A stretch of DNA of 60,831 bases, filler included, from Hausera hauseri (Eukaryota), in assembly GCA_046269625.1 (NCBI GenBank). It is 10 parts of 10 records of this genome, joined end to end, with 100 filler letters (N's around TTAATTAATTAA, not from the genome) between each part and the next. Parts side by side here need not be neighbours in the genome. Positions count along the whole stretch, not along the records: positions 55,248 to 60,831 come from JBJURY010225742.1; 9 more parts are not named here. One strand, written 5' to 3'. A model generated the notes under the pieces. The model made no database searches, was not told the origin of the DNA, and was given only the letters and a program-made list of their open reading frames with translations. Numbering within the stretch: position 1 is the stretch's first letter; each line of letters opens with the position of its first letter. Shown here one piece after another: positions 26,201 through 60,831 of this stretch. Made by a program: the position numbers and the translations under genes.

Positions 26201-26260
26201 TTCGCTAGGTCGAAGATTTCTTTTCTTCATTTTTAAAAGTTGGTAGTATTTTTGAATCAT
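23168..26260 (-). CDS. Myosin-XV-like tail (FERM-like/MyTH4/FERM) fused to ~1.5 filamin Ig repeats
   Basis: KREIFLPGE...FCQIVRD, LAVSHTGVRL, MyTH4 ELSDEGILQVFKQINGNPN, FERM FKRITW...LLFYQ...LPRFG, then filamin CKDNGDGSATVSYCP..GEYAIHI...SPF. Confidence 0.8.
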   Translation of the reverse strand: MIQKYYQLLKMKKRNLRPSEVPKVDVANRALFLEYFFKKKKGLPMAPEPVKKTPSPPIDHVQSKPYKFDRMPSISLKRQESIIPRPRLSYTKNETARIEHDENDSIDTLNIYSPRKLAKHSILTKPKIVQRARKDSKNVKNENVLSLQSYQPFLDELDASISLGSKSIETSLEQPPKKKRFVSDKKAIILSGLPDLRYISYTNSSWFPMLKREIFLPGEVHDNALLNSVIFCQIVRDLLEFPCNRWMGNEKKRLIALLGEYGNVRDPKVPLNAPKSLMLKVIDEAQKCELYFSRFYAIKLHSSKTEYNGCFWLAVSHTGVRLVEQNFTNPKSRISIVSHIPFDSIISMNCENPDVYSNQTKLIIKSKSTKYKIITQYAYSIYSLIQEFQGQKENDTIGGILNLDKIDGSIPLIPDRKRRKNDLLKKSNLISGDLNVSIYGANKERIPVKTVLEKDRKTLKEPENKIVDKNLIDFVQLYFKHKEILMMCSQAEPSGSGKAADYAINVLKKLLQNRELSDEGILQVFKQINGNPNNMIRQMLWNFLSIIVVFVGISKRMQPYFEYHLKQVAKNPLNPEQDLANIVIKNFKLFLKFGLRKEFPKKEEIQQLLNEAYVKQLNILLSKGSKSVETTFTSTVGDVIAMICKVAGIIDEKEILEYGLLAVPNGKQQIKSIFSGYLKSQDYIHEHVNLLQKQKQSRYNFYFKRITWICPLNVDKRNDEFINLLFYQLSEEMIFGEWLLDDDINSSMDDMDKITTLACYCLRGQGYEGKLTKEALKMALPTAILNSKVSTSKRPKLVTMINAHANDTDDYMNEIKCRRQFLLKFKSLPRFGNIKCRIINLNNEQPDRQMFITFARRSIFISLSQIECKDNGDGSATVSYCPQTVGEYAIHILFENEDILNSPFMIDVVSRTTDHKSNKIKVFGPALSKEILKVGHTYMFTVDVTHSYGHTNLLVTQCYDKSGLTVPVEILNDSKNRRIYSLIPHSTPKLNLCITFDGVNVFGSPFMIYVDDNASTTKFYSDENSVHSKK

Positions 26261-27573: not shown

Positions 27574-28579
27574 NNNNNNNNNNCGGTTGTTGTTAACTGA
27601 TAATAGTTAATTGACAAATAATTATAAGCATAATGCCATCGGTTTATATAAAAGCTCAACCGGAAAACGCATTCAAAGTGGTTTGTAAAATGTATAAAAC
27701 AAGTATAGAAGACTTTTCATGTTGTGCAGGTCTAGAAATAATTTTTGTACACTCGCCAAGACCATTCAGAGAGACGCCGACAGATCGTGCAAATGGTACG
27801 GATTTCCAGACGAAACAACNNNNNNNNNNNNNNNNNNNNNNNNNNNNNNNNNNNNNNNNNNNNTTAATTAATTAANNNNNNNNNNNNNNNNNNNNNNNNN
27901 NNNNNNNNNNNNNNNNNNNTTACTGATTGTCTATTTTCCCACTGCATGTTTCATTTTTGAGCCGTTTAATTTTAGCTTCTAAATTTGTTTTGTAATTCTA
28001 AGTACATAAATAATTTCGGATAACAGATTTAAAATCATACCATTTGTCGTACTATTCCTTGAAACAACGCTATGCGATTTTCAAAGCCCATATTTATTCC
28101 CAAACACCAAAATTAAAATAAAAATTTTCTGACACAAACCGACCAATCAGATTGCACCAAGGGTGGGTGGGAATAGTGAAACCCAATCTGCACCAGAAAA
28201 TGCTTTGTTTAAAATTTAAACAATTTTTTTACGCGCCAAATTCAAATTTATACACGTATCTAAAAACCATACAGTACGCGTACTTGTGTATATCCACTTT
28301 GTGACTGTGTGTCTCCTATCTCCGCCCTATTAACCGTGTATGTGTGTATCGTTTTATCTACCCAATGACGCATCTGAGAACCACTTTTTTCCTTCCTTCC
28401 ATGGGGGGGAGGGCAATGTCCTCACTTCCTCCTACTTCCCGGTTTAACAGCACAGCAACCAATCCATTGGCAATGTTCATTGACTGCTGAAACTGCACAT
28501 TACTCATGTATGTGACCAACCGCTTTTCGCTATTGCATAGGCGTACATTGAGCCGCTTTTTTAGATTCTGCACTGTTTT

Positions 28580-32849: not shown

Positions 32850-33095
32850 AGGTAGGTGGGGAAATAGTGATGTCCGAAAACTACGTCAGGAAAAAATTAT
32901 TGTTATAGTCAGATAGGTGAGGAAATGCGGTTGACCGGAACTGGGTCACATGAAAATATTTCAAATGTAGTCAGATAGATGGCTAAATTTAGTTGTTCGG
33001 AACTGGGTCACAGGAAAAATTTTCCTACCCAACTCACCTTTCTGAGTCCAAATATACAGGTGTCCGAAACTAGGTCAGTTTAAAAATTTTTCCGA
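32850..33095. repeat. Degenerate ~62-bp tandem repeat, ~4 units
   Basis: Units of the form AGTCAGATAGGTG.GGAAAT...GTCCGAAAACTAGGTCA. The reverse complement occurs at 54816-54950. Confidence 0.75.
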
Positions 33096-33331: not shown

Positions 33332-34380
33332 TTCGCAGGACACATGCCTGGAAGAAAACGTTAGAAAGAATATTGAATAAATATTTTTGGCCCAGCATTT
33401 ATATTGATGTAAAGAATTTGGTGAATGCTTGTGAAGTATGGGCGATTAAACAAAGGAAAACAAATAATTACATGCCCGAATTAAAACCAATAAGTGTGCC
33501 CTATAGGCCTATGCAAGTCATGTCAATGGATATAGTAGGACCGCTACATACAACTCATAAGAGTGATAAATATATTTTAACTTGTATTGACCGACTAACT
33601 GATTTTGTTGAGTTGATAGCGTTAATTGATATAAAGGCAGAAACCTTGGCAGAAGCTGTAGTAAGAAGAATCATTGGTCAATATGGACCTCCAGACCAAA
33701 TATTAACCGATCGAGGAAAAAATTTTACCAGTGAACTATTCGAGAAGATTAGCAAAATATTTTAAATCGAATGGTTAACTACAACCGCGTATCATCCTCA
33801 ATGTAATGGAATGGTTGAACAAATGAATGCAACTGTAATTCGCATACTATCAACAGTAGTAGCTAAGGACCAAAAAAATTGGGACGAATTTTTAGAATGG
33901 ACTGAATTTGCAATTAATACCACCCCTCATCCGGCGACAGAATTTACCACATTTTTCATAATGTATGAACGTGAGGCTGTGTTACCACAGACTTAGGAAT
34001 GACATCATACACAGTCAGTCCCGAAAATCTAGAACAAAACTTTGCAGAAGTATTACAGACGCGACTAGAAAAATGTTGGGAAATCGCCAAGGAATTACCC
34101 CAAGAATATCAAGAACAGTTTAAAAACAATATGATAAGAAAGCGAAACCACATGAATTAGAACAAGGAACCTGCGTTTATGTACATTATGCAGTAGCCAA
34201 GAAAGGCGCATTATTAAAACTGACTCGTATAGGCAGAGGTACGTACGAAGTTACTGGAGTTACTCCAACTACGGTGTACATAAAAACGAATGGAAAGGAA
34301 GAAGTCGTGTCAGTACAAAGAGTTGTTAAGACGGAGATACGGCCCAATAAACGTTATAATTTACGTAAACGCGAGATAAA
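33332..34380 (+). pseudogene. Gypsy integrase (element A)
   Basis: SMDIVGPL, LTDRGKNFTS, AYHPQCNGMVE, RYNLRKR. Confidence 0.92.
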
Positions 34381-35817
34381 AACTTCTTCAATAATTGCTA
34401 GACCGATATCATACATTCAGATAGTTTTAGCGCTATCATTAATTGCTTCCTACATCCCAAGAACACAAACCCAAGGGTGGGACGATGAAATTACGCTAGG
34501 AGACATATATGGAATTCGGAAGAGCGGACTAAAAGCGAAAAATACCATAGCGGAAAAGAAACCAAAGGCCCAAGAGATCCAGATGTGAGAAGACACTGTT
34601 TTGTTACAATCGATGAAGGTCATTATTTTTCACCAGACTCTCTGTGTTTGGGATTTAAAACTTTGAAACTGCATCAAGATTTTGGAAGATTTCAATTTTT
34701 CGTATACAATATAACAACAAAAGAATCGAAAAACTGTGATTTTGAACCCTAAGATTATACACAATGCTGCGACATAGATTTTGGATACATTTATATTCTT
34801 ACTTATCGACTATACTTACCAGAGTCATCAGACGTCTACATCGAAGTAAATTAACAACTTCAGTTAGTTATTCCCATTTGGATCAAACGATTCAAAGTGA
34901 AACCAGGTGAAATGCTACAATCTACCGACACAAACATAAGGTTATTAGATTAAAATATCAAAGGGATCTCAATAAATAAGGAAAAACAATGCATCCAAGT
35001 AGATGCTCAAATAGGATTAAACTTTAGTCAAGAAATTAGTACTGTTTTCGAAGCAGTAAACAGAAAAATCCCAAGAATAAATTACTGTTCTGTTCATGCC
35101 GGTGTGCCACACCCATTTTGCAAGCTACCAGTAAACCAAGAATTCAAAATAAAATTTGATCTATATTAAGTACGACCGAATAAACCGAACTAACATTTGC
35201 GAACCTATTACCCAGAGAATAGAATATGGAAGAATCCAGTAGAAACAACAACCGAAAAGCCGACTATTTGAGTTAGTGCCACTACAAGACCCGTTACATT
35301 AAGCAGTGTGCTTAAAAAAGAATTAGGAAGTATACCTGTTAAATTTTCGGCGCATCGATCTAAAATTGTGTTCTTTTTAGAAGAAAAACTAAATTACGAT
35401 ATACACATAAGCTGCCGAACAACGTATAATAATCAAATTGTAACATTATTTAAAAACACTTATCAGACAGAATGCAATCTGTTAAAACCACAATCTTATT
35501 ACATAGTACAAGTATATGCAGAGAATAAACAAAACCAAACACTTACATTGCGTACCTTGGACGAAATTCGCGCAGAGTTGCATATATACGAAAATATCGA
35601 CGACGAAGTCACAACACCAGTCACCACACAAGCACCAATAGGATTAACTACTTTACCAATCGTTTCCATTGTCGTACTATCAACGTTTATTCTCATTATA
35701 TTAATTGTCATTTTTCGGTTAGTTGCCAAAAATTATCATTGTAAGCGTCCTAAAAATACAGAATGGGAATTACGGGAATTGGAAACCCCCACTGATCCGT
35801 ATGATGAAATAATCTGA
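34381..35817 (+). pseudogene. Env-like type I membrane protein (signal peptide, ectodomain, FN3-like domain, Thr-rich stalk, TM, YxxI tail)
   Basis: IQIVLALSLIASY is in frame with the integrase end; CNLLKPQSYYIVQVYA; TM IVSIVVLSTFILIILIVIF; tail ends PYDEII. Internal stops and frameshifts. Confidence 0.7.
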
Positions 35818-35915
35818 CAAATACAGAGCGGGTTATTCTATTACCTAACAAAGAATTGGTTTCATTTTAAGACCATCCTTTGTTGTAATATTAACCCTTA
35901 CTGTTTATTTTTTAG

Positions 35916-38312
35916 ACTGATAAGTAAAGAGAGAATTATAAAAACGGATACCGGACAACCTAGGATCGACGGACCACGTTTTATCCGAGAATTAGAATCA
36001 CCAAAACGCCGAATTAGTATCGACGAGTTCCTGCAGAATTACGCTACCGTTTTCGTTCCAAATTCCAAATTCATATATCGAGAAATTTATAACGAACTGC
36101 ATGAGAAAACTTATGTGAAGTATGATCAGAGCAGTAAAATTCCTAACAATTTAAAGGGTATAACGGAGGAAAATAGGATTGTCTACCTTTACGCCATGAG
36201 AGAAGATAAGGATGCTCGAGCATATTCACTCAAACGAATAATCACGTATGAAAACCGTCAAATTATTTACATCCACCTAGCAGATGGAGAAATATATTAT
36301 CGATTCAAAGATCAAGAATGGAACACAAACAACGGAAGGCAATACAGATTTAGTATCCTTAGCTTACGTAGCGAAGATTTACAGCATTACGAATTAGAAT
36401 TCCGAGTAGCCGCCCTTCCCGTAAATATAATGTTCGAGGTAACGTACGACGATTACCCCTTTGTCAAACTGCCACCTTTGAAATTTCATAATCAACCGTC
36501 AGAAAAGGACTCTGGCACATTCTCACAATCTCATAGACTAGTGCAAGACGCCAGAAATACGAGAATCATAACAATCAATTGCGGAGAAGGGGATGAAGCG
36601 AAGAAAAATCCAATGTAAGTTTCAAGTCGAGAAACGAACGGAACAAAAGTATATTGTGCAATTATTAGCCCGAGAAAATGTGTTTGTGAGACATACTACG
36701 ATACGACAAGAATTCGCAAGGAAACACTCACAAGAGGTAGAGAGATCAAACTTGTCCAAGCTGAATTGAAACAATGTTTTTACGGATATATCCTAGCTGA
36801 ATATCGCATCGATAGAATTGTCGAACTCTTGGCGATACCGTGCTCAAGCATCGTAGGAATGCGTGAGATAGGAACAGACCCAGTAGTCGCCGAAAAAAGT
36901 AAACGAATATTGCGAGAAAGGAATTACCCTATGCCAAAAATTATGGACGCCTATTTCAAATTAATGGTTGACGCGATGAACAGCGAACATGTAAGATTAA
37001 CAAACTGTTAACCTCAAGTCAACGTACTCAATACTTGCGAGATATTTATGTAGCTTTAAAATTGGACCATGAGTGGACACCCAGTAATCCAGAACAAAAT
37101 TTACGAAGTACATCCGACCCGGAAACCATAAACAAAAAGTATCGTAAGCAGTATCGTTTGTATTCCCCGTGTAGAATCGTGGAACCCATGGGGCAGGATA
37201 ATATCAAAATAACTTCGGAAATGAGATAAATCGTGTACCGACGTGCCCAGCACCAGTTATGGTTCCCACATCAAACCAATTCCAGAAATGAAATCTAAAA
37301 TCAAGGAAATAGAAGCAATTGACACATTCAAAGTACCCAAAATTCCACCAAAAAGCTGAAAGCTGGAACACAAATTTCCCCGATTAAAAGAAAATTATCC
37401 CTCTATGATTACTTGTTCAGAAAGAAAAATAAAGGAACAAACTCAAACCAAGCTCAAGAGGACCGAACCGATGAAACGAACTAAGAACCCGAAATTTCAG
37501 AGATAGCAAGAGAAATCCCTACAACATCCGCAAATGACCAAATGACAATCCCAGAAAAACCCAAGAGAAAAACATACAAGTACAAAAACCTAGAGAGCGG
37601 ATTTCAACAACTGTTCAGGAAAGCAAATATCCTAAGAAAAAGGATTTCCCAAGAAGATATACACTTCGCAACAACTAAGGATTACCCGAAGATGCTAATA
37701 ACCAGCGAGTATTATAGTCACCAGAAAATTAAAGAAGCAATGTTTTTCGTGAAGACCACACCAGCTCGAGAAGTATACAAAAACACCTACATTTGGGAAA
37801 ATCCTAAGATAGGAAGGTATATTGCGCCAGTTTTCCAATCGAAAAGAAACGGCAAGTTAACAGTGCTAGTAGATAAACAAATGAAAGCTTTGCTGAAAAA
37901 ACAGCATCAGAAGTATCAAACGGATGGCGAAATTTCCGACTTAGATCGAGATACCATCGCCGATTGGATCTTAGTACCAGTAGGTTGTGACCCTAGAAAG
38001 AGTTCTGTAAACCCCAAACAAAAGAGAATCCATGGTTACCTATATCAAGATAAAGACGGTCTCATATTCGAACCCATAGAGCTCACAATAAGAGTAAATT
38101 TAGACGACGAGAAATGGGATAAAAAGGAAAACGAATGCCCAGTATGTGAAACAAATCTTAGTGAAAAATATGTTGTTTTGGATAATCGTGATTTTAGACA
38201 CAAATATTGCCGAGATTGCTTGGAAAAATGGACCCTAGATAATGGCAAAACCACCTACCCGGTGTGCAGAGCTGAAGCAACTGAACCGAAATACTTTTCG
38301 AACGGTAGTTAG
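35916..38312 (+). pseudogene. Accessory ORF3 of element A: N domain, dead DEDDh-like fold, conserved C domain, RING variant
   Basis: One frame runs from a polypyrimidine-AG (35914-5) through 36115..36618 and 36766..37011. It aligns with ORF 56301..58100. CPVC...HKYCRDCLEKW...YPVCR at the end. Confidence 0.7.
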
Positions 38313-38612
38313 ACCCGTGTAGTTCGAATAAAACCCCATTGCAGTTATGAATTGGAAATACGGACTCAGAAGTGAGCTTACGTAGACGAATAAATCTCCT
38401 AAGACAACCACGTTATGACGTCACCTCTCCTGACGCAATGGGCACTTACGAGGATGCCGCTCAGGGAGGGGAAATGTTGTAAAGACGTCCAATATTGAGA
38501 AGACGTCCAAAANNNNNNNNNNNNNNNNNNNNNNNNNNNNNNNNNNNNNNNNNNNNTTAATTAATTAANNNNNNNNNNNNNNNNNNNNNNNNNNNNNNNN
38601 NNNNNNNNNNNN

Positions 38613-40900
38613 TCTTGGAATGTACCCGGTGCTGCTGCTATTCCAAAAGGCATTCTGTTGAAACAAAATTGTCCCCGTTTAGTCGAAAAGGCTGTTTTCA
38701 ACTTAGATTCTTCCTCTAGTTCGACCTGGTAGTATGCGTTTCTCAGATGGATTGACGTAAAATATCTAGCCCGATATAGTTTATCCATCATTTCCATGAT
38801 ATTCGGCATGAATATGCTTGCCTTTATGTGACGAGTTTCAACTGTCTAAAGTCTAGACAAATTCTGACATCGTTTTTCTCTTTCTTCCAGACGCATATCA
38901 TCGGAGTATTCCAAGGTGATTTACATTTCTTGATTATATTGTTTTCCTATAAGTTTTGGATGGTCTCATCGATTTTAGTTTCTAAATCCACTGGTTGTCT
39001 ATGCGGTTTGATGTTAATTGGTGCATTTTTTGTGTCTATTCTATGCTTTACCAATGTTGTACAGTCGATATCCCACTTGTCAGCCACGAAAACGTCTTTG
39101 TTCTTTCGTACTATGTCCAATACGACTGAGTTTTTGTTTTTCCATAGAATCTCCTTCGCTCTTTTGAATCGTTCTTTATTCGTCACTTTTCGGCCAAATT
39201 TTCCTTCTACGTTACGTATATTATACCTTTGTTCTTCTCCATCTTTCTGTCCCCAACCTAATTCGATTTCAAAAGTATTTTGTAGTTCCATTCCTTCAAT
39301 TATTTCTGGTGATATGTCTGTCACTACTCTGAAAGTTACGCACTTTTGTACACTCTTGAGTTCCGCATTTACGGACAGTTCACCCATCCAGCCTAGGGGT
39401 CTACCATTTGCACAACGGAGCGCAATATCTGATTTCTCCAGCTGAACATCTATCAGACTTTCAAAAATCTTCCTACTCATTACGTTTACCCGTGCCACTG
39501 TGTCCAATAGGCAGTTTTCCCATCTACCCTGTATCTTTATTTTTATACCTGGCCGTCCTTGTAGTTTATCGTACGTGATCTGCTTTTGCGACAGTCCTGG
39601 AAAAAAATCCACTCTTCATGGAGGCTCTTGTTTTGACTTTCTGTAATTCGTACTTCTTCATTTCTGTCTCCAAACGTTCCCTCCTTTATGAACCGCCGTA
39701 ACTATTCCTCTCTTCTTTCCTTCATTTCTTCAATACCTTGTCTATTCCTTTCAATATTTTGGAAGCCTTTGGAGTTGTTTAATGTAATGCCCGACAAGCT
39801 CCACTTCTGTCGAGGCTCTGCCTTTTGGAGTTGTCGACTCTATGATGGATTCTTTATAGTCTTCATCAATATTTGCAACATATGCGTACCTGCTGTTTAT
39901 CCTCTCTACATATCTTTTCTGACCATACCACGCAGGTTTGAAATTGTCTGTATACGTATTTTGTCCTCCTCTGATCTTGTCCAATTTGTATAACATTCTT
40001 CTTCCCTGTGCACTTTATTGTGACACCTATTGAATTTTATGTTTATGAAATTTCGCTTTATGTGTCCTTGTTTCCGGCAGTTCCCGTCAATGTGCCCTTC
40101 TTTTCTGCAACCAAACATCTTGGTACTTGTTGGAAGTTGCATGTCCTGCTTTCATGCTGTCCTTCTAGCACGACCAGCATTTCATCCTTTTCTTTATATG
40201 CGTATTTTGTGATTTGAAATCCCTCCTTTCTTGTCTTGGTTTATCAAGTTTCTGCATTGCCACATCCCGATAACTCCGTCAACCCTCTCTAGTGTATTCT
40301 TTGACTGTGTCTATTTCTTGCATCTTCTTTGCAACTTTGTGAACTTTCTGTATTTTCAATTTGATTTGTTCTAAGTTTTTTTCGTCACCGCGGTAGATTT
40401 CCTTTCTCGTCTCCGGATCGTCACAACAGTGGATCACAATTCCTTTGTTAGAGCTTCCAGTGTTACTTTCTGGCTAAATATGCTTTTAGCCAGTTATTCA
40501 ATTTTGCTGAAGTAGGCGGCCAGTTCTACCACCTCATTCTGTAGTCCAAGGCCTCCTGCAGATCTCCACACAGTGCTGTCGGTTTTGAGAAGGCTTTTCT
40601 CAACCGGTTTTGGTATCCTTTCACTTTCTGGCTCACCAGATTGTATTTCTCCTGTGCTTCTTCCGCCAAAAGGCACAGGACCGCGGTTTCCCGGTCCGTC
40701 TCCGACATCTTTGTGAAGTCGAAGTATCTCTCGCATTTTCGAATAAAGTTTTCCACGTTGTCACACATTTGGAATTCTTTGACATCAATTTCTTCTCGAA
40801 AAATTCTCTTGAAGCGTTGGTCGCTGTGTTAGTAGATCGCGTTTCTACCATCCCGACTTCAATGTCACTTGATGATTGTAAAATACAATTATCCATAAAT
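38613..40900 (-). mobile_element. Degenerate Ty3/Gypsy gag-PR-RT 5' half
   Basis: Gag MVETRS...VENFIRKCERYF, zinc knuckles GCRKEGHIDGNC, protease LLDTVARVNV, RT HLRNAYYQVEL...MPFGIAAAPGTFQ. Probable LTR boundary at 40877. Confidence 0.92.
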
Positions 40901-50111: not shown

Positions 50112-51459
50112 AGAGTTCTGTAACAAGGACAGGGAGGGAGTCATGAATGCACAGAGCACACTCAGTGGGCAAAGTCATGTGAGCTGTGCATTTGGGAATG
50201 AGTCCAAACAGCTGATCTTGTCACAAACATCATTTAGAGAGCTGTCACTTTGAGAAATTAAACTCGTGGTGTCATATGTCTGACAGTGTTTNNNNNNNNN
50301 NNNNNNNNNNNNNNNNNNNNNNNNNNNNNNNNNNNTTAATTAATTAANNNNNNNNNNNNNNNNNNNNNNNNNNNNNNNNNNNNNNNNNNNNTATAAAAAA
50401 GTCCAGCCAAATCCAAAAGTATTATTCAGAAGATACGGCAAAAGTTTCAGAAACTCCGGTGCAAAATTCAAAAGACCGGGAATTATCACCAAAAATGTTT
50501 ATTCGCGATATTCCCAACATTATAACCCAGGAATTGATAATACGTGACTCTATGTTTCTGGATGTGAAATGGGGCTCTATTTACCTTTACCCCAGTTACC
50601 CCACGAATAAGATACCCTTCGGAAGAAACAGCTGTCCATTCTATTCTACTTTTCAAAAGTCCCCCTTGCCGATGATGGATGATAATGTTGGGAGGAATGA
50701 GGTTGTGTTTGGGGGCCAACCGGCTATCCCAACAATTGCGAGTAATGAAATAGTACTGTTCGAATTTATTACGATACAAGCTAAGTTCAATACAGCAGAT
50801 ATAGAATCATAGTACAGATCAGCCACATTTTCTTCCAAAATTAAGAATGTAAATCTTTCGGATCCAAAAATATACTAGCAAATTCGAAAATTTCCTTTTA
50901 GTCATACTTGAATCTCCGTTCAAATAAGTCACTTAGAATATTTTATCGTGGTTAATTGCCTCAATCCTTATATACTGGTCTCATTTTACTCCCACCCACG
51001 TTGATGAATTTCTGTCAAACCAGAATTCACCCAAATGGATTCTTCGTGGGCGTTATCTAATTTATGACATTTTCGTTGAAGCCGCCATTGATGTCATTTG
51101 TGGACTGAATCATTTAAAATTTCTAATTCTAATTTCCTGTTTTTCTGATTTAGAAAATATTTCAATTTTTGTTTTAATGGGATTAATAATTCTAATTTCG
51201 GTTTTTTAGATACAGCATTTTATTTACATTGCCTGTACAATTTTCTACTCAATTTCTATCTTTTACAACATTTCCCTGAACGGCACTATCGTGTGTGCCC
51301 TTTGCGTCAGAAGAGGTACCGCCTTTATTGGAGCGGCTTAGTAGATTTAGTCATCTGCTTAAGTCTGCTTCAGAATCTGATTCATTACCTTGAGAACGTA
51401 TCTCTAAATGGTAATCCGTATTGGGTCTCCGAGGGAATATCTCTACTGTCCTGTTACTT

Positions 51460-52376
51460 TCCCCATTGGAGAAATTTCGTAGTTTCGTGGATTCAGCGCG
51501 ACATACTGGATAGGTCGTTTTCCTGTTTTACAGGGTCCTCGATTGCAGACAATATCGACAATATTTAGGAGTGAAATCCGTTGTTTAATACTACGAATTT
51601 TTAGTAAATATTAGCCGCATATTGGGCATCCTGCGTCTTCGGCGGCGTCTATATCTACTCCGTCATCTAATTCAATTCGCTCAAACACTAGTCCTTTTTG
51701 ATCTAAATACAGATACCAAACAATTCTTTCTGAGCTGGATGGAAGAAATTTTTTCTCGGGTCGCCGGATACGGAAATTAGCGTCCATTCCATTAACTCAT
51801 CCTTATCCAAATCTGGAATACCAATCTTTTTGCACTGTTGCTTTAGATGTATCCGAACGTGGATATCTACCAGAACAGTCAATTTCCCGGTTCCTATCTT
51901 TGAACTGAACACTGGAGTTAAGTATTTCTCTAATTCTGAGTTTTTCCCAGCATATGCATTTTCATACACGCTTCTTTTGGAATCAGTAGAAACAGAACAT
52001 GGCCTCCTTGATTTTGCCTTTACTGTAGTTTTCGGTCATGATTAAAATCCTGGAGGATTCTTTGATTTGGCCAAATTCCATTACTATTATGGGAACGTGT
52101 TCCTCTGCTGTTTTCCTTAGATCATCTACTTCCGACATCCTGGCTTTTCTAGTTTCTCCTTCTTTAACCGTCCTTCATAGCGGAAGATTTTTCTTCTTTA
52201 TTCAGCGGTTTCTTTGGTTTTTTGTCGTTTCGGTTTTTTCTGGGATTCGTTGTTTCTTTTTGGTTTTTGATCCCGGTTTTGTCTCGCTTTGTTTGGTTGA
52301 CTGATAGAATATTGTTCGGTTGATCTGCCTTTTGTGGGCTGTCATTGGCCCTATTCTTCTTTGTCCTTATACGCAA
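51460..52376 (-). pseudogene. ORF3 C domain plus RING variant of a third related Gypsy element (C)
   Basis: PVFSSK..GKLTVLVD...DLDKD...DPRK, CPICG, KYCRYCL...TTYPVCRAE match 37542..38312. Confidence 0.8.
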
Positions 52377-52377
52377 A

Positions 52378-53111
52378 GAGTAGGTAGAAGCGAGCTTCCT
52401 GTTGCACTCCTCTGATTGGCCCTAAAACCATTGGTCCTCACCTGATTGGCTAAAACGACCATTTTGGTAAAAATATTGGTAACGCCCCAGTGAAGGAAGA
52501 AAGTCGAGCAATGAATTTTAGATCGTGACCAATTGGTCAAGCTAGACAAGGCGAGCAAAGGTCAACAGCGCCGCGAAACCGAAAAATGTAACCCGGTGGT
52601 ACAGGATGCGGAAGAAAAAAACGGGCAATATGCAACCAGCAACGCAACACGTTGCTGGTATACCAAAATTTAGTACAGAGGTAAAATTGATATTTGCAAG
52701 TCGAATGGACAGTTTCGTCGTCATCCGACCGTGGGAACATGGGGAAAACCGGTTGGGAAAATTTCCCCCTGTTCAAGTCTGGCAGTGATGGAAAGAGGTC
52801 AGACACATTGCCCATAAGTTGGGGGAAATTTGATATTATAACAGCCTCACAGTCAGACCAACGGATCCGGGTGAAAAATGCAAAAATTCGAAAAACGCAT
52901 TGTTAAAAAGAGTCAAAATTGTCATCATCATCATAATCATGATCATTGTCATTATCGTTTTGTCAATGCGTTAATTTTGTAAAACGTGGATTTTATTTCT
53001 TTTTGTACGACGATGCTTAAAACCGAACGGTTTACGATCGATCGATCGCACAAAAGCGCCAAGAGCTCATAATTGAATACTACTACTACTCACAAGGAGA
53101 ATGTTTGTGAT
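52378..53111. mobile_element. Short version of the unclassified element at 18544-20376
   Basis: Shares the left and right ends and lacks the 324-aa ORF. Confidence 0.6.
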
Positions 53112-54815
53112 CCAAAGTGCAATGGTAGTTGTGGTGGTGGCACCTGAGACCGTCTGCTGCTTACAAAACAAATAATCGGTTATCGTAACGGAATTTCACT
53201 ACACAAAACAAAAGCTTCAACAACAACAACAAAACATGTATTTGAAATTCACAAATCTGCAGTAAACATTTAGTCATTGTTCACAAATCAAGAGTTTGTA
53301 GCGTAAGCCACAATAGGCAGTAATGCCCACATAATACGGTAAGTGGATGTTGATCCCCGAGGAAGAGAAGAGAAGTTTAGAATAGGTATATATATGTACG
53401 GCTATGTTCATTGAAAGTTATATTACATATATAAATCGAACTTTGACAGAAAGTATTGTTACTGAACTTTGACATCAGACTTGATTTTAACCGAAGGTAT
53501 ATAATATCAATTCCACATTTTCCATGTCATAAATTTCAATTCAATGGCAAGTGAAGTGAGTATTAATTTTACTTATGTATGTATTAAATTTTGTCGATTT
53601 TAAATTTATTGAGATTTTAAACTTTTACGAAATTTGCAATACTTTTCTTTAACTAATATTGTTTTAATATACATTTAACACGTTTCCTATATGTTCTATC
53701 AATCTAAAATGTATTCGTTTAATTCACAATGGTATATTCAGTAGTGTACAGATTTTGGCTATGACATAACTGACCACATATTATATTCAATGGATATTTT
53801 CATTTCTTTTTAAAGCAACTTCTTCAATCATATGATGTGCTGATGATTATAAATAATTTTACAATTATTAATTAGTACTCTAATACTTTGATCACATTGA
53901 TCGTGCCATTACGAAATGGTTGGTGTAAATTGTTAATGATAAATGTATCATTTAGCTTATATAAAAGTAGTCGATAAATGAAAACTACAATATATTGTTA
54001 CGTTCGATTATGTAGCTTCGATACTAACCAATTGCGGACAAAATAAATGAAATAAAAGTAGGCAAGCTTATAGTGTTGACTTGTTTATTGGTCGTCGAAC
54101 AAACTGGACGTTGACCTGCTTAAGACATCTCCGTTTTATTTTTATATTAGATGTCAACACAACTGAATAATTTAAAGTTCTGAAACCAAAATCCAAAGAC
54201 GTGTGTGCTTTGCAATTATTATTTAAAATACAACGAAATGGAAAGGTTAAATGCATTAATTATTTTCCATCGAATTTTAATCGAGATTATTTCAGCCCTT
54301 AAATAACACCAAATATCAATGGTTGTATGCACGTCATTTGAAGCTTAAAGCGTCACAGAGCAATTAATAAAGGTGAAAATCATGCGAAGTTCTTATGCAA
54401 TAGGAAAGAATAATTTTTACATGATATTTACAAGGAACATCACCTTACTGTTATTCGGAGTTTTACAAGTTCTGCACGTTCTACAAGTAAAGAAAGAAAG
54501 TGTTTGTGTTATAATTCTATTTAATGAAGTGTTTTGGATAAACTATAATTTTTTCCAATCTGATACGTACACAAATAAGTTTGCTTTCCATTGCACTACA
54601 GTTTGTGACGAACGGGCGTGAACAGTCCGTACTCTAACGGTTTCCCATGTTGCTTCACATTGATCACTAATTTGTTGAAACCACTTGCGCACCACCTACT
54701 ATAAAGTGGTTATATTAATTGAGGAAACTTTGCTGGCGTACACAACTCATGAAAGTTTCACGGCAATCGGCTGAAGGGCATAGGAACAGAGAAGTGAGAA
54801 ACAGACAAACACAAC

Positions 54816-54950
54816 CACATTTCCCCACCTATCTGACTATAAGGATCATTTAAATTTTTTGGGTGACCTAGTTTTCGGACAAACACATTTCCCCACCTAT
54901 CTGACTATAAGGATCATTTTAATTTTTGGTGACCTAGTTTTTGGTCTGAC
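54816..54950. repeat. 68-bp tandem repeat x2, related to 32850-33095
   Basis: CACATTTCCCCACCTATCTGACTATAAGGATCATTT...GGTGACCTAGTTTT at 54816 and 54884. Confidence 0.85.
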
Positions 54951-55589
54951 CACACCCGTTTGCAAGCAGAGATATTCGGGATTTTGTGTATAATATCGAA
55001 AAATCGATATATCTCTGGAACGAATAAAGATAATTTAATGCAATTTAATGTGTATGAATGGAATTAATTCCTCTACTGTCCTGTTACTTTCCCCATTGGA
55101 GAAATTTCGTAGTTTCGTGGATTCAGCGCGACATACTGGATAGGTCGNNNNNNNNNNNNNNNNNNNNNNNNNNNNNNNNNNNNNNNNNNNNTTAATTAAT
55201 TAANNNNNNNNNNNNNNNNNNNNNNNNNNNNNNNNNNNNNNNNNNNNGCATTGGTTGATTTTTATTGGTTTGTGAATGGTTGTTATTTGCTTGTGTGCAT
55301 TTCTGGTTTTTTGTATGTATGTTTCTTTTAGTTTTTGTGTGTGTATATATTTTAAAACTTTTAAGGTTAACCATCCACTCCACATTTCTATCCACAATTG
55401 GGGCAAATAACAAAGCCGTTGTTATTAACAAGTTTTTACTAACTACATATTTTATCTTATTCAAAAATATTTAAATTTTTAATAATTTAGTTTATTTTAT
55501 CAATTGATTATTTTTAGTCAATTGTTTTCTAAAATGTTTAATTTCAATAATCTTTTTAATATAAAAGCATCTTTGTTCCCTAACACATT

Positions 55590-56093
55590 TGTTAAAAAAG
55601 AGAAATTTAAATACATTTCTACCATAGAAAATTTGTAATGTTTTTCTTGAGTCAAATTGTCACTATTACAGAATAATTCAAATTGTGAGCATTAACAAAA
55701 ATTTAAAAACAGTAATCGATACAGTCGTGTGTGTACGCTTGTTTAATGGCAGAATTACTCATACGATACTGATTGCGGAGTTTTTTTTAATTTTCAACTA
55801 CAGTAACAATTACGAATGATAATCAATGGCGTCTACAACAGTAACTGCTATGCACTTAGTCACCTTAAGTTTTGATGATATGGACTATTAGAAATATTTG
55901 AAATTTGCAAAATCTTTCAATTGTAAAGCAATTTTTCGAATTATGAAGTAGCATTTTAAAATGTTTCACTTTTAGCTAATTATGGTTATTGCATAATGTT
56001 CAAAGTTGTGTGTTCAATTAGGTTCTAACGTTCTAACTTTTCATCTGATTCTCTGGCTCTATTAAAGATGAAAAACATATCTGTTCCCTAACA
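55590..56093 (-). mobile_element. 3' LTR of element B (504 bp)
   Basis: TGTTA...TAACA termini. On the minus strand it is preceded by a PPT (A, G-run, AAGA) at 56094-56107. Confidence 0.75.
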
Positions 56094-56300
56094 TCTTCCC
56101 CCCCCCTGTAATGAAATTTTTCTTAAAAATTTAAATATTTATTATCATTTAAACATTCAATAACGAATAGAAGATATGATAAAAAAAATTTTTACAGTAA
56201 TAAACATAGATAAAAAATAAAGTACATAAAATATAAGATAGACAGATATAGAAATACACATAAAAGGAAAGTTATTAAATCACAGCAAGTTTGTTATTTG

Positions 56301-58391
56301 TCACAATTGGATTGTCCATCCTGGGGTCCTCTGTGTTTCTTCTTTTGTTCTTTGTCTAGTGGATAACTGATACAAGTTCTCCAATATCAATTCGTCTTTT
56401 TTGGCGAATAATAGCATCCGGAGTCTTCTTTTGTTTGTGTTTTTTATTTTAATCACTGTTCCACCTCTAGGTTTTGGGATTGGAATATCGTCCAGTTGAA
56501 CCGGTATTGGTTGTTGTATCAATATAGGTTCATTTTGTAAAAGCATAATGGCATCTCTATAACTACCAAGCATAGCCAGGTGCAATGTGTTGCCTTGGAT
56601 ATGCCGGTAAATAATACCAATTAATTTTCCATGATCAGGATGCGGAACTATCTGATTATCTTGATCTTGAGTCGTTTTTGGCTCGTGGATAAACGTTACG
56701 TTGATAACTTTATTTATGTTACCGTAAAGTAACATTGATAGTTTGATTCCTATTGTACGCAGAGTTGGTTCTTTTTCTTGGAATTTTGTTATTTTGTCAG
56801 TTTCTGTTTGGTTTGTTGAATTGCAGATTTCTTGATTATTTGGCTTTGGATCCTTTTCATGATCTTGTAGGTCTTCGAACTTGAAATTTTCATGGTATCT
56901 TTTTGGGATTTGGTGGAATGCTCCATAGTCGATCACATTATGATTTGGTGATAACCAATCGAACTGCCACGTTTCATTTGTGCAAGAATTGTCTATTTGA
57001 CTATAGATGTCCATTACTGCATGGATTATGGACTCTGCATTTTTCGGGAATTCATAAGAAAATCCATAAACTTTTGGTAGTTGGGTAAGGTTAATCTTTA
57101 AACCTTCTTCCTGAAATCTATCCTTGGTGATTTTGTTACTCAAGATATCTATTACGCCGAATACAAAATGTTCGGGTATCCGAAGTGCTTTTAGAATAGT
57201 GCTTGTATTAGCACTTATTATGACATATCCAGTTAGGAATTTGATCAGCTCGGAACGATTTGCTTCTTCATCTTCAGATTGTTGAATTATTTGAAGAGTC
57301 AAACCATGAATGTGTTCGTTGGTGTTGGCTATTCTCCGCCTAGGGTTTATGTAGGCCTGGAAAATAATCAACTTCTCTTCGTTTGTAATGATGACTTCCA
57401 CTGGTAGTGGATCTCCGTTGACTGCGTATGCTAAAGATACGGCCAAGAATCTATAATTAAAGGCTTGGGTTAGCCGATAATTACAAATGTCATTTTTTGG
57501 AACTTTGTAAAAGATAGGTTGTTTAAAACCCGCTTTGTCTTCTAATGGCTGGCAGATCTCTACTCCTAATACCACCGGAGTTAGTAGTACTTTGAAGTAG
57601 AGGTTGGTTTTTAGCGCATTGGCCATTATCCTCATGGTAGTCTTTGATCCAATGATGCTTTTTTGCGGATTAATACCATCATAGGTTTCGTTTTCAGCCT
57701 TCCACTGGATTTTACCAGTAGCCACGTGCACCAGGATTTTTTCGAGTGGCTGTTGTGGTTGAAATATCGCGGCGAAATTCATATTGTACGATGGTTTTTC
57801 GATTCTAATTATTCGAAAAACCCGTTCGTTGAGAGTATTTGATTTCAGCGCATTGTCCAAATACTTACATTCTGGATATATAAGATCGTCTGATTCCTGC
57901 ATAAGTTGAACTAATTTTGTGTAGAATTTTGTTGGGTACAGATTTCTGTTAGCATCATAAATAAGAATGGATTTGTCGTACATCTCTTCCCATGTACGAT
58001 TTCTGATTCTATCTTCTTCACTTTCTTTAACATTTTTTATAATTTGATCCTGAACTTTTTGTTTCTTCTTTTCCGGGAGATCTTCAAAAGTTATCTTCAA
58101 ATTCGGACTATTGATTGTATTTTTGGATGATTTAACAATTTTGGAATTCTTGGCATACTTAATATGCCTCGATTTAATCCGAACCCTTGGGTTGGGTTTT
58201 GAAAGGTGAAAGAAGTTGATGGTTCTGATGGTGGTATAACCCTTCGTTTAGGGTTGGGGACCACTGAAACGATTGAACTGTCTGAATCAGATTCTGAGTT
58301 GCTATTTTTATCGAGATCGACTTCCATATCTTTCGTTTTCTTTTCGTCTTTCGGCTCGTAAACTGGAGTGTTGAGAAAATTCATAGGTTTG
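56301..58391 (-). CDS. Accessory ORF3 of element B with an inactive DEDDh (REX4/ISG20-like) exonuclease fold
   Basis: FLAVSLAY...VIITN...IFQAYINP...TNEHIHGLT...ELIKFLTGYVII...LKALRI...AVMDIY follows the REX4-type pattern without the acidic or His catalytic residues. One frameshift near 58100 joins the N-terminal part. Confidence 0.72.
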
Positions 58392-58914
58392 CTGTAAAAG
58401 AAAAAATAATGATAGCGGGTCGTTTTTAATGGCCCGTTTGCAAGGTAGGTTGTTACCTTGCATTGGTTGATTTTTATTGGTTTGTGAATGGTTGTTATTT
58501 GCTTGTGTGCATTTCTGGTTTTTTGTATGTATGTTTCTTTTAGTTTTTGTGTGTGTATATATTTTAAAACTTTTAAGGTTAACCATCCACTCCACATTTC
58601 TATCCACAATTGGGGCAAATAACAAAGCCGTTGTTATTAACAAGTTTTTATTAACTATATTTTCATTTTCGAAATTTTGTAAGGATTTTAATTGTTTTTG
58701 AATTTGTTTCCTTTCTATAATCCATTTTTTTAATTCGATAATCATAAATGGTATAGATATTGTTATTAGGAGTACAGTTATTACTGTAAATGGGATTATA
58801 GTTTTTAATGTAGTGATATGAATATTTGGTATTATTGTGGTCACTTTTAAGGTATATTGTTGTATTTCTAATGGAATCAGATGTTTTTGTGTTTTGGTTG
58901 GTGTTCTGACTGTC
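58308..58914 (-). CDS. C-terminal stalk/TM/tail of the element B env-like protein (frameshifted)
   Basis: KTVRTPT...TIIPFTVITVLLITISIPFMIIELKK continues the 626-aa ORF after a 1-nt shift near 58920. Confidence 0.65.
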
Positions 58915-60831
58915 TTATATTATACTGCTGCATGATTTTGGGAAAACGACTAAATATTCTTCATAGGGTTGGAGATCACTACATCTTGCCATTTTTTCAT
59001 TTTGCTTTATGGTAGCGTATATAACATGATATTTTCCTATACATGTTATGGTGATTGGATTTTTTACTAGTTGCATGGTTTTAAATTCAATATACAAGTC
59101 TGTTGTGCTTAGGTCAATTTCTGGTATTTTATTGAAATATGATATAGGAGTTGATTTAGTTATATCTATTTTTGGTGTTACTGTAGGTGGTATTAGTAGT
59201 CGTTTTTCAACCTTAAAAAACTGTGGTAATGTCATGTGGATATGGAAGTTTAAGGCCTTTTTGCCTGATTTATGCTCGAAAAATTTTGGAAAATAATATG
59301 TTATTTGTAAGTCAACATTTTCTTTTAAAGTGGGTCTCTTTATTACGATTTTATTTATCATTTTTGGACTATCGTCTTTTTCTTGAGTGAAAGAGAAAGT
59401 TTGACCCATCTTTTCTACATGAATCTGTCGGGCTATCGGACTAAATTCATTTCTTTTTTGTATGAGGTTTTGAGTTGTCAAAAAATACAAATCAATGGTA
59501 CAAGCTTTATTTATGAGTGTGGTAGTACATTTTTTAGTAAGTAGCCATATGTCTAATTCTTTTGGTGGCAATATTAGTTGAGAGATCTTTTTAAATTCTG
59601 ATTCTCCAAGAAATAGTGCATTTACCTGTTTTGGTAAATATTGCCATCTTAAATTTATTCGTATTTTCATATCGTCATCGATCCGTTCGGTTGTTAATAT
59701 TTGGCCTGTTGCTGATAATATTAGACCAAAGATCATAATTATGAAGAATAATTGTTCTAAGCTACAAGTTGATTTTAAAACTGGTTGTTTAGTTGATCTC
59801 AGGGAGTATTTTGGTTCCTCTGTTGGTTTGGGTTCTTTTGGTCCTTTGGTTACTCGTTGGGCTGATATACATTCAATTCTGGTCTTTTTACCAGTTCCTT
59901 TTTCGATAAAAATATTTTCGGGTGTAGTTTTGACTACTACAAAAGGTCCTTTGCCAGTTCGAGTTAATTTTAATGATTTTCCTGGTTTGGTTACTGGATA
60001 GTGTACCATTACTTTATCACCTGGTTGAAACTTATGAGGACTAGCTTTTTTATTATAATATTCTTGATATTCTTGTTTGTATTGTTTTATAGCTTGTTTA
60101 GCCTTTTTCCAATAGTTTGCTAAGCTATTAATAACACTTTCATGTATATCTTCATCCGACTGATTTTCAGGAATTTCTTTTTCTGGTAATAACTGAATGT
60201 CCATGGGTAGAAGTGGTTTTCTACCGTACATTAATTCGAAAGGTGTAAAACCTGATGAGCTTGTTGGTGTGGTTGCTATTGCGAATTGCACGACTTTTAA
60301 ATGAATATCCCAATCCTTTTGGGTTTTATCTATCATAGCAGATAGTATACACTGTACTGTATAATTTAATCTTTCAACTTTGCCGTTGCATTGGGGATGA
60401 TATGCTGTTGTTAGCAATCTATTGGTTTGGCAAATATCAGTTATTTCTTTTAATAATTTACTTCGGAAATTTGGTGCTCTGTCAGTTAATAAATGTCGTG
60501 GTGCGCCAAATTGACAAACTATTCTATTAATGCATTTCTTTGCTACCGTGGAAGCTAGTAGATCCTTTGTTGGAATTAAGATAGGATAGCTAGTTAGATA
60601 ATCTGTGCATAACAAGATATATTTATTCCCTCTTGAAGTTGTTGGGAATGGTCCAGAAAAGTCCATAGCGCATAGTTCCATTGGACTGCTTGGTTCTGGT
60701 AATGATTTTAACTCAGGTTTGTAACGTTTACCTTTATTTTTCATGGTTGCACACATTTTGCATTCGTCTACCCAATCCTTTACATCTTGTTCCATTGTAG
60801 GCCAGTAATATTTCTGTTTTATTCGTTTTTT
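58915..60831 (-). CDS. Gypsy integrase fused in frame to an env-like ectodomain
   Basis: CKMC, AMDFSGPF, LTDRAPNF, AYHPQCNGKVERLN, KGPF, YSLRS, then hydrophobic LFFIIMIFGLILSATG and FN3-like CSDLQPYEEYLVVF. Confidence 0.9.
   Translation of the reverse strand, partial: KKRIKQKYYWPTMEQDVKDWVDECKMCATMKNKGKRYKPELKSLPEPSSPMELCAMDFSGPFPTTSRGNKYILLCTDYLTSYPILIPTKDLLASTVAKKCINRIVCQFGAPRHLLTDRAPNFRSKLLKEITDICQTNRLLTTAYHPQCNGKVERLNYTVQCILSAMIDKTQKDWDIHLKVVQFAIATTPTSSSGFTPFELMYGRKPLLPMDIQLLPEKEIPENQSDEDIHESVINSLANYWKKAKQAIKQYKQEYQEYYNKKASPHKFQPGDKVMVHYPVTKPGKSLKLTRTGKGPFVVVKTTPENIFIEKGTGKKTRIECISAQRVTKGPKEPKPTEEPKYSLRSTKQPVLKSTCSLEQLFFIIMIFGLILSATGQILTTERIDDDMKIRINLRWQYLPKQVNALFLGESEFKKISQLILPPKELDIWLLTKKCTTTLINKACTIDLYFLTTQNLIQKRNEFSPIARQIHVEKMGQTFSFTQEKDDSPKMINKIVIKRPTLKENVDLQITYYFPKFFEHKSGKKALNFHIHMTLPQFFKVEKRLLIPPTVTPKIDITKSTPISYFNKIPEIDLSTTDLYIEFKTMQLVKNPITITCIGKYHVIYATIKQNEKMARCSDLQPYEEYLVVFPKSCSSII

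Follow-up and report, generated by a model that had tools for sequence, protein, structure and literature searches.

Broken Gypsy elements of Hausera hauseri with an FN3-type membrane protein fused to integrase and a separate exonuclease-like gene

What kind of retroelement carries a signal peptide, an ectodomain and a transmembrane (TM) segment directly behind its integrase (IN), followed by a further large gene? This question is raised by the window, the 60,831-nucleotide stretch of Hausera hauseri DNA that we analyzed as a whole, in which short contigs follow one another with N spacers between them. A sequence-only reading had taken the segment behind IN for an env, and the further gene, ORF3, for an unusual accessory gene of complex retrovirus-like Gypsy elements.

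Three decayed Gypsy elements in the window

The window contains three Gypsy elements, present only as broken 3' parts: copy A (contig 33332-38512, plus strand), copy B (contig 55248-60831, minus strand), and copy C (within contig 50392-55147, minus strand). Between them they carry the same 3' half that relatives have, from IN onward in copies A and B, with nothing upstream of IN.

33334 to 34372, plus strand: copy A integrase, interrupted by one stop and frameshifts (Pfam; tblastn)
59797 to 60831, minus strand: copy B integrase with zinc-binding, core and C-terminal domains; the contig starts inside it (Pfam PF17921, PF00665, PF18697; tblastn with the relatives' polyproteins, E 6e-64 and 3e-73)
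51264 to 52174, minus strand: copy C, with a broken ORF3 C-part, RING remnant, 3' untranslated region, polypurine tract (PPT; 51271-51277), and LTR start (tblastn E 2e-18 to 4e-18; DNA alignment to the copy A 3' end)
58460 to 58663, no strand assigned: a 204-nt segment that is a 99% repeat of the contig end 55248-55451 and may be a secondary repeat or an assembly effect

Pfam Integrase_H2C2 scored over its cut-off in copies A and B; rve did so in copy A and was slightly under in copy B. The H2C2 zinc domain and the C-terminal GPY/F-like module of a Gypsy-type IN are both found (PF17921, PF00665, and a weak PF18697 match), and a GP-aromatic motif is present in the copy B IN and in four relatives. 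The two integrases are 45% identical. The pol order PR-RT-RNase H-IN is seen in relatives L001, L002 and P0010, and the window copies hold IN only. Our overall reading, which includes the functions suggested below and has a probability of roughly 0.55, is that these genomic copies are decayed and come from a Ty3/Gypsy (Metaviridae-like) lineage of animals, one with relatives that encode a single giant polyprotein.

From IN to TM, copy A has many stops and frameshifts, with 21 stops in the best single frame. In copy B, the IN, signal and ectodomain form one open frame of 638 codons, and ORF3 forms another of 648 codons; given the base composition, the chance probability of each is about 1e-22. 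The third copy, which had been proposed near 51.5-52.4 kb, proved to be a true relative of the C-terminal part of copy A (tblastn E 2e-18; z 31, 0/500 shuffles).

Intact relatives encode Gag, a fusogen and Pol in one polyprotein

The intact relatives encode a single polyprotein of 3,000 to 3,900 aa, in the order Gag, signal, viral fusion glycoprotein, TM, two or three proteases, RT, RNase H, IN, second signal, one or two FN3 modules, stalk, and TM. A separate ORF3 follows, with an N-terminal domain and an ISG20/REX4-type DEDDh exonuclease. The fusion glycoprotein (PF24664) lies between Gag and protease, upstream of pol, in all four long polyproteins (E 5e-94, 9e-84 and 2e-89; P0011 by precomputed annotation). 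Gag zinc knuckles were seen in P0009 and P0010. Such elements require transcripts of 12 to 16 kb. L001 to L004 share one assembly prefix and are therefore not independent hosts.

The window copies begin at IN. Their IN is 38 to 43% identical to that of the intact relatives, which are 67 to 80% identical among themselves, and an eight-row IN tree left the placement of copies A and B open. Therefore, an upstream env in the window copies is an extrapolation, and we consider it likely that they once had this fusogen too. The domain assignments themselves are almost certainly correct.

The protein fused to integrase has an FN3 fold

34391 to 34447, plus strand: copy A internal signal-peptide-like segment, in frame with the IN C terminus
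34448 to 35817, plus strand: copy A ectodomain (in pieces), FN3-like module 35362-35538, stalk, TM 35659-35715, and tail (best of 1459 window pieces, E 8.6e-6; hydropathy)
59710 to 59766, minus strand: copy B internal signal-peptide-like segment in the IN frame (hydropathy peak, residues 356-374 of the 638-codon frame)
58918 to 59709, minus strand: copy B ectodomain, with membrane-proximal FN3-like module 58930-59118 (relatives-only module profile, second-best of 1459 window pieces, E 1e-3)
58670 to 58919, minus strand: copy B Thr-rich stalk, TM 58743-58799, and short tail, in a frame that differs from that of the ectodomain (break near 58915-58950)

In both copies, a hydrophobic signal-like segment continues the frame of the IN C terminus. 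The stalks contain 6 Thr in 29 residues (A) and 10 in 40 (B), and hydropathy places a TM segment after each. The layout claimed for the two copies stands for the IN, in-frame signal, stalk, TM, ORF3, and PPT; however, the stalk and TM of copy B are out of the ectodomain frame, and the frame of copy A is broken.

An FN3 module profile built without window sequence ranked copy A first and copy B second among 1459 window pieces. In a profile search against PDB sequences, the best match was fibronectin (E 0.0015), and the others among the best 25 of 29 were cell-surface and matrix proteins. The AF2 model of an L002 module (pLDDT 84) is all beta, matches FN3 structures (Foldseek E 4e-4), and superposes on fibronectin with a Z of 10.4 (VIA) and an rmsd of 2.2 over 89 aligned residues. 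The structure model is that of L002; the window modules were assigned by profile, and the assignment covers the membrane-proximal module of copies A and B. As judged by profile and model, the IN-fused protein is composed of a signal peptide, FN3 module(s), stalk and TM, and is not a fusogen. No fusogen Pfam domain matched in the window, and a fusogen profile from four relatives reached only E 1.1 there.

Five of the six elements with an IN end have this cassette (A, B, L001, L002/P0009 and P0010); the called protein of P0011 has no signal or TM after IN. The number of modules differs among elements. L001 has an additional signal-FN3-TM unit between two proteases, and in P0010 a protease sits between IN and the cassette.

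ORF3 is an exonuclease homolog that has lost its catalytic residues in the window

35818 to 37008, plus strand: copy A ORF3 N-part, with candidate splice acceptor 35914-35915, N-terminal domain, DEDDh pseudo-exonuclease, and in-frame stop 36616-36618 (profile E 3.6e-6; 41% identical to P0005)
37485 to 38312, plus strand: copy A ORF3 C-part, a domain common to copy C and then a putative RING finger at about 38130-38270 (Pfam zf-C3HC4 E 8e-4)
58097 to 58413, minus strand: candidate splice acceptor (AG 58393-58392) and short ATG-led frame overlapping the copy B ORF3 start in another frame (one of two strong acceptors on the contig sense strand)
56301 to 58247, minus strand: copy B ORF3, with N-terminal domain (about 57935-57450), DEDDh pseudo-exonuclease (about 57449-56955), and a further C-terminal part without RING (profile of six intact ORF3s E 2e-19; tblastn E 5e-11 and 3e-11)
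55066 to 55147, minus strand: 82-nt second copy of the ORF3 RING-end, at a contig end

The short frame at 58097-58413 is probably the true 5' part of copy B ORF3, with a frame break between them. By sequence, ORF3 joins an N-terminal domain to a homolog of ISG20/REX4-type DEDDh 3'-5' exonucleases, and the window copies are predicted to be catalytically dead. The N-terminal domain had no match in PDB or Pfam. The exonuclease profile matched ISG20L2 (E 1e-19), ISG20 (1e-10), and SDN1 (5e-9). Pfam RNase_T (PF00929) scored over its cut-off in P0001, P0002, L001 and L004 and under it in L002, and the profile of intact relatives detected fold-level DEDDh homology in copies B (E 2e-19) and A (E 3.6e-6).

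D-x-E, the acidic Exo II position, and H-x4-D are all kept in 7 of 11 ORF3 rows. The Exo II position, which we take from ISG20, is D in five of these rows and E in two. The catalytic set is absent from A, B and P0004; P0005 lacks Exo I, and its sequence stops before Exo III. Dead and intact ORF3s cluster apart in the tree (99/99), a split that rests on long branches. A rotifer-type DEDDy, RNase D-like ORF3 was rejected, because all seven intact rows have H-x4-D and the best PDB relatives are the ISG20 group.

The putative RING finger of copy A scored 19.7 bits against a Pfam cut-off of 21, with one late cysteine position substituted; copy C has a broken RING, and copy B has none. The two ORF3s had been said to align along their length. 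This is true of the N-half (tblastn E 3.6e-4, 21% identity over 228 columns; z 10.6, 0/500 shuffles), but the A and B C-halves gave no significant alignment (z 2.2, 22/500 shuffles; hhalign probability 0.4%), which leaves the last two motif pairs of the sequence-only reading unsupported. The C-parts of B and C also gave no significant alignment (295/500 shuffles).

Protein-level selection and 3' ends

38463 to 38512, plus strand: copy A PPT and first bases of the probable 3' LTR, where the contig ends
56094 to 56107, minus strand: copy B PPT, with TG next at 56093 (probable 3' LTR start)

Codon position 2 is best kept and position 3 worst in all eight pairwise comparisons, seven of which are in ORF3. 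Fourfold sites are identical at 6/20 (B versus A) and 11/33 (L001 versus L002); third positions are thus near saturation while the protein is conserved. Together with the layout common to intact relatives, this codon pattern upholds the claim of an accessory ORF under protein-level selection in a complex Gypsy lineage.

A PPT and then TG follow ORF3 by 150 to 190 nt in copies A and B, and the copy C 3' end aligns to that of copy A through the PPT. PPT and TG soon after ORF3 were seen in A, B, C, and L003; L001 and L004 had no clear PPT there, and L002 had just a weak and distant one. The LTR evidence in the window is the TG start alone. No long direct repeats were found in the examined parts of L001 to L004, which lack 5' ends. 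Strong splice acceptors precede ORF3 in only three of six elements.

Possible functions of the two proteins

We suggest that internal signal and stop-transfer segments would thread the polyprotein through the ER, and that signal peptidase and the element's own proteases would free its parts. In this scenario, the upstream glycoprotein would carry out fusion, and the FN3 protein, as a second protein at the surface, would bind a partner on cells, for attachment or cell-to-cell passage. We put the chances of such an attachment or adhesion factor at about even. The env originally proposed here has in its favor the position behind IN with signal, stalk and TM, the absence of the 5' halves from the sequence, and the first ESM Atlas match of the copy B ectodomain, a Monjiviricetes_fusion cluster (0.80). 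However, 0.80 is chance level by the tool's own calibration, only 1 of the 10 best family matches agrees, and the four-relative fusogen profile found nothing significant in the window. The module is FN3, and all four long related polyproteins have their viral fusion glycoprotein elsewhere, so an env is very improbable. The FN3 protein may instead act on the host cell rather than the particle, as a decoy receptor, as a factor in superinfection exclusion, or as an anchor holding Pol in position at the membrane. Cytokine receptors as well as adhesion molecules typically have FN3 folds, and the extra unit in L001, the intervening protease in P0010, the varying module number, and the missing P0011 cassette would fit such a role. 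We consider it unlikely, since one-to-one cotranslation with the fusogen and Gag would suit particle incorporation and the stalk resembles those of surface-displayed proteins.

ORF3, probably made from a spliced RNA, would counter RNA-based host defence. Intact forms may destroy or cut back small RNAs or RNA triggers; dead forms may still use the fold for binding RNA or a silencing complex, with the RING of copies A and C perhaps ubiquitinating a partner. Argued by analogy, a counter-defence factor is plausible, at slightly worse than even odds: an arenavirus DEDDh exonuclease is described as acting in immune suppression and noncatalytic Maelstrom in piRNA silencing (PMC7968707, PMC5408684). 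ORF3 could also serve the element's own replication, with intact forms in 3'-end trimming or quality control of a very long RNA and dead forms as an RNA chaperone or splicing/export regulator. The need for 12- to 16-kb transcripts, the many RNA-processing roles described for DEDDh enzymes (PMC7968707), and 3'-end processing as the first role named by Rodriguez 2017 (PMC5408684) favor this, and lost catalysis with a kept fold suits an RNA-binding regulator. However, the nearest solved relatives are ISG20L2, ISG20 and SDN1, the RING suggests action on other proteins, and catalytic loss speaks against an essential processing step, which makes a replication role doubtful. ISG20 and SDN1 are known from antiviral and small-RNA turnover. 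The broken state of the window copies would be in keeping with ORF3 and the FN3 cassette as neutral passengers or as host genes next to the element. Such a reading is scarcely tenable given the same gene order in A, B, L001 and L002, a PPT directly after ORF3, a cassette in frame with IN, and a protein kept despite near-saturated third positions. A dead ORF3 as splicing/export regulator would recall the accessory proteins of complex retroviruses.

An FN3 surface protein fused to integrase and a captured gene of RNA-degrading type widen the gene toolkit of retrovirus-like elements and bear on two open questions, the infectivity of LTR retrotransposons and their resistance to small-RNA silencing. 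The family supplies a candidate second surface protein, apparently of cellular fold, beside a viral fusogen, and its intact and dead DEDDh proteins form a natural pair for in vitro comparison of activity. Position alone is no ground for naming an ORF with signal, ectodomain and TM env when it follows integrase. As a long shot, the family may be an invertebrate metavirus lineage with two-protein entry (fusogen and separate FN3 attachment protein, both cut from one membrane-threaded Gag-Env-Pol polyprotein) and a dedicated RNA-silencing antagonist that, in the window branch, ceased to be an exonuclease and became an RNA-guided ubiquitin-ligase adaptor, made up of the dead nuclease and the RING. 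If true, accessory-gene logic like that of complex vertebrate retroviruses would have arisen convergently outside Retroviridae.

Relation to known elements

A search of papers, with Repbase outside its scope, turned up no such FN3 cassette and no such DEDDh/pseudo-nuclease ORF. The novelty of an accessory gene had been overstated. Bdelloid rotifer Juno and Vesta, also Gypsy elements, carry an exonuclease as an ORF of its own downstream of pol, for which a role in RNA processing or silencing has been proposed; that ORF3 is described as an intact, RNase D-like DEDDy enzyme that replaces env (PMC5408684). In contrast, the window family has an ORF3 of DEDDh type (H-x4-D) with an additional N-terminal domain and a dead branch with RING; in the relatives this ORF3 coexists with two membrane proteins. 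By sequence profile it shares the DEDDh fold of ISG20, ISG20L2, REX4, SDN1, the arenavirus NP exonuclease and Maelstrom; unlike them, it is retroelement encoded and fused to an extra domain. Viruses are on record as having captured DEDDh domains, and the catalytic set has been lost elsewhere too (PMC7968707).

The gag-env-pol order is also already known. Burro/GYPSM1, a planarian giant Gypsy, is described with a huge polyprotein and an env in frame between Gag and protease that resembles mononegavirus fusion proteins, and with extra domains (RING, ubiquitin-like) and accessory ORFs (PMC6431247). Its MATH, BIR, BCL2, ankyrin and dUTPase domains (PMC6431247) set it apart, as Pfam found none of these in L001, L002, or P0010. 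In a comparison by description, the Burro section has neither an FN3 membrane protein after IN nor an exonuclease ORF (PMC6431247). GAG-ENV-POL errantiviruses of Nematoda, Bryozoa and Platyhelminthes, with gB/chuvirus-type env, share with the relatives both the gene order and a viral glycoprotein akin to the ones that negative-strand RNA viruses carry; the main text of that report has no mention of "exonuclease," "accessory," or "fibronectin" (PMC13524379). Compared by description rather than sequence, some of them may belong to the window family, with an unannotated 3' cassette. The nematode ERVs of Sacco 2022 reportedly have this gag-env-pol order and such a glycoprotein as well.

Layout of the element copies

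The window consists of about eleven short, N-spaced contigs that carry animal-type genes (MyTH4/filamin, kringle) and several decayed mobile elements. An Rfam search of it gave 0 matches. The 3' parts of three decayed Gypsy elements lie on separate contigs:

33332-38512, + strand: copy A
55248-60831, - strand: copy B
inside 50392-55147, - strand: copy C

The contigs of A and B both start within the integrase (IN), and therefore the region upstream of IN cannot be read from the window for either copy. The sequence-only reading had proposed a shared layout, most of which we recovered. Both A and B contain IN, an in-frame signal-like segment, an ectodomain, a Thr-rich stalk, a TM segment, a separate long ORF (ORF3), and a polypurine tract (PPT) followed by TG. 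However, the stalk and TM of B are in another frame, and A is split into many pieces. Copy B has two long open frames, of 638 and 648 codons, with a chance probability near 1e-22 for each. Near each of the two frame breaks of B, contigs of two sequencing runs show small indels relative to the window. This suggests that the breaks are copy-specific.

The PPT and TG lie 100 to 190 nt past ORF3 in A, B, and L003, one of four related metagenome loci (L001 to L004), and the 3' end of copy C aligns with that of A. No PPT was found after ORF3 in L001 or L004, and the one in L002 is weak and far from ORF3. A strong splice acceptor lies ahead of ORF3 in each of A, B, and L002; at the threshold used, there was none in L001, L003, or L004. 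Further small accessory ORFs flank ORF3, before or after it (L002:9189-9854; L001:11583-12017; L004:2688-2969 and following). Several begin directly after a pyrimidine-rich AG, two look coiled-coil-like by eye, and none matched Pfam.

ORF3 is a homolog of DEDDh exonucleases

ORF3 of copy B alone had no significant match to Pfam or to PDB sequences, and its single-sequence AF2 model was unusable (pLDDT 31). RNase_T clusters came up as a weak lead in the ESM Atlas, with a score of 0.83 that falls under the tool's reliable range. An exhaustive comparison of this ORF3 with 1.84 billion representatives returned five matches at E <= 0.001. Four were full-length relatives, and two of the four had RNase_T above the Pfam cut-off. 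The fifth, the FN3/LRR protein P0003, was dropped as repeat-driven. A six-sequence profile (A, B, and the four relatives) matched the solved structures of ISG20L2 (E 1e-19), ISG20 (1e-10), and SDN1 (5e-9).

A further search added the database proteins P0007 and P0008, and JGI metagenome contigs supplied L001 to L004, which have a single assembly prefix in common. The viral and genome contigs that we scanned contained no relatives, and a word-index search with alignment A1 gave none among 5694 candidates. We then compared a profile of six intact ORF3s, those with catalytic residues kept, with the six window frames. This profile contained no window sequence, and its sole matches were to B (E 2e-19) and A (3.6e-6). 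The N-terminal domain of about 170 residues and the C-terminal domain of ORF3 had no match in PDB or Pfam.

The ORF3s of A and B had been described as aligning along their whole length. This was borne out for the N-terminal half, with a z of 10.6 and 0 of 500 shuffles; in the C-terminal half, homology could not be demonstrated (z of 2.2, 22 of 500 shuffles; hhalign probability 0.4%). The reported third copy of the C-terminal part is real, since copy C matches that part of A (z 31); C did not match the C-terminal part of B (295 of 500 shuffles). At the end of ORF3 in A lies a RING finger that scores just below the Pfam cut-off, and the RING at the end of C is broken. No RING was found in ORF3 of B. 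Alignment A4 hinted that the C-terminal part of A duplicates the nuclease unit, a reading that we rejected (hhalign probability 0.1%).

Catalytic residues are lost in one branch, which selection retained

The catalytic set of this ISG20/REX4-type family, D-x-E (Exo I), an acidic Exo II position, and H-x4-D (Exo III), is kept in full in 7 of 11 aligned ORF3 rows. These seven represent six distinct sequences, because L002 and P0008 are 98% identical. All three motifs are missing from A, B, and P0004, and P0005, a sequence that is cut short, lacks Exo I. The motif coordinates given here were derived from frames and match ranges, with a possible error of a few codons. In the tree, the four dead ORF3s stand apart from the intact ones with support of 99/99, with a long-branch warning. 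Each of the seven ORF3 comparisons had codon position 2 as the most conserved and position 3 as the least; the values for B versus A were 0.37/0.53/0.30. The earlier proposal of selection at the protein level was thus upheld, and this pattern indicates that the dead ORF3s were retained by selection and are not mere products of decay.

The IN-fused membrane protein carries FN3 modules

In L001 and L002, a single open frame of >3,000 codons lies upstream of ORF3. Pfam identified in it a Monjiviricetes fusion glycoprotein (E 5e-94 and 9e-84), followed by two or three proteases, RT, RNase H, and IN. The complete L002 protein is P0009, with 3,700 aa. Like P0010 (3,865 aa), it has Gag zinc knuckles near its N-terminus, and the same fusogen also occurs in P0011. 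We take this fusogen family, in part from PMC13524379, to be of the gB/chuvirus-like class. Three retropepsin domains were present per polyprotein in L001:1-9633, P0010, and P0011, one of them after the integrase in P0010 and P0011, and L002/P0009 had two.

After IN, the proteins of L001, L002, and P0010 continue with a second signal, one or two modules of about 100 residues, a stalk, and a TM. The called protein of P0011 has no such cassette after IN. An additional, complete signal-FN3-TM unit is encoded at L001:4100-4670, where it lies between two of the proteases and ahead of RT. A six-module profile built from the relatives ranked the ectodomain of A first (E 8.6e-6) and that of B second (1e-3) among 1459 window pieces. 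By sequence, the module alignment matched fibronectin and other cell-surface proteins. The module fold was confident (pLDDT 84) and superposed on fibronectin type III (FN3) domains (Foldseek E 4e-4; VIA Z 10.4, rmsd 2.2, 89 aligned). A BFVD fold search found FN3-like proteins of phage and large DNA viruses, with no retroelement among the 50 matches listed. The relatives' fusogen profile found nothing in the window. The IN-fused part had been called env; given the module evidence and the lack of a fusogen match, we conclude that this part is a membrane protein with FN3 modules rather than the fusogen.

The integrases of A and B are 38 to 43% identical to those of the intact set, within which identity is 67 to 80%, and the IN tree leaves A and B unresolved. 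By extrapolation from the relatives, A and B probably once also carried the upstream fusogen. The membrane protein before ORF3 in L004 (L004:3-812) has a small cysteine-rich ectodomain with no Pfam match, which suggests from sequence that the cassette may be swappable. Short Tyr- and Pro-containing motifs follow the TM in the cytoplasmic tails of L001, L002, L004, P0010, and window 35716-35817; these are possibly sorting or signalling motifs.

Comparison with known elements and a possible mechanism

The env of planarian Burro is in frame between gag and pol (PMC6431247), and nematode, bryozoan, and flatworm elements have the order GAG-ENV-POL (PMC13524379). In rotifer Gypsy elements, exonuclease ORF3s of the DEDDy type replace env (PMC5408684). 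The sections of PMC3985635 and PMC12440569 covered contained no such element. The literature covered contained no report in Gypsy elements of an IN-fused FN3 membrane protein, or of a DEDDh or dead-nuclease-RING ORF. The element type may already be catalogued, for example in Repbase or GyDB, by Sacco 2022, or in supplementary data such as the element sequences of PMC13524379. Related segments occur in the Gag-env interval of P0009 (about 584-668 and 838-922), P0010 (822-905), and P0011 (128-211). To the eye they have a ubiquitin-like character, a feature also reported for Burro; Pfam gave no confirmation for the one segment tried.

The sequence-only reading was confirmed in part as an observation and supported in part as an interpretation. 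We suggest that the way the family works resembles that of complex gag-env-pol metaviruses of the Burro/NERV type, a likeness in working and not a clade assignment. The polyprotein would be threaded through the ER by its alternating signal and TM segments, and its parts would be freed by signal peptidase and the proteases. The upstream glycoprotein would serve fusion, and the FN3 protein would bind a surface partner. A host-cell role for the FN3 protein is one of two main alternatives and seems unlikely to us.

ORF3 may be a counter-defence factor against RNA-based defence, in which intact forms would degrade, and dead forms would bind, with ubiquitination added in A and C. The basis for this step is analogy with the arenavirus NP exonuclease and Maelstrom (PMC7968707, PMC3429428, PMC3675627). 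By its title, PMC9815661 gives exonuclease activity only a minor part in interferon antagonism. The other main alternative is that ORF3 serves the element's own RNA handling, which we consider unlikely, and we favor the counter-defence role.

Other elements and genes in the window

The window also contains the following features:

28530-30851 (-), 20688-21218 (-), and 9150-9760 (+): Polinton/adintovirus-like fragments with Pfam endonuclease VII and rve integrase domains
2028-5588 (+) and 38613-40900 (-): two further Gypsy elements, also decayed, that retain parts of RT and protease and are not close relatives of A or B
23168-26260 (-): uninterrupted, host-like frame of 1,030 codons with MyTH4, FERM-like, and filamin domains

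The first group appears to be of Polinton/adintovirus type, presumably with a decayed DNA polymerase B and a capsid-like frame. Contig ends are duplicated at 12473-12540 and 17203-17270 (68 nt), 51436-51517 and 55066-55147 (82 nt), and 55248-55451 and 58460-58663 (204 nt), probably reflecting assembly breaks at repeats. A related unit of about 62 to 68 nt forms short tandem copies on two contigs (32887-33010 and 54811-54927) and is perhaps a Helitron- or MITE-like repeat. The host-like frame is unusual in spanning >3 kb without introns.
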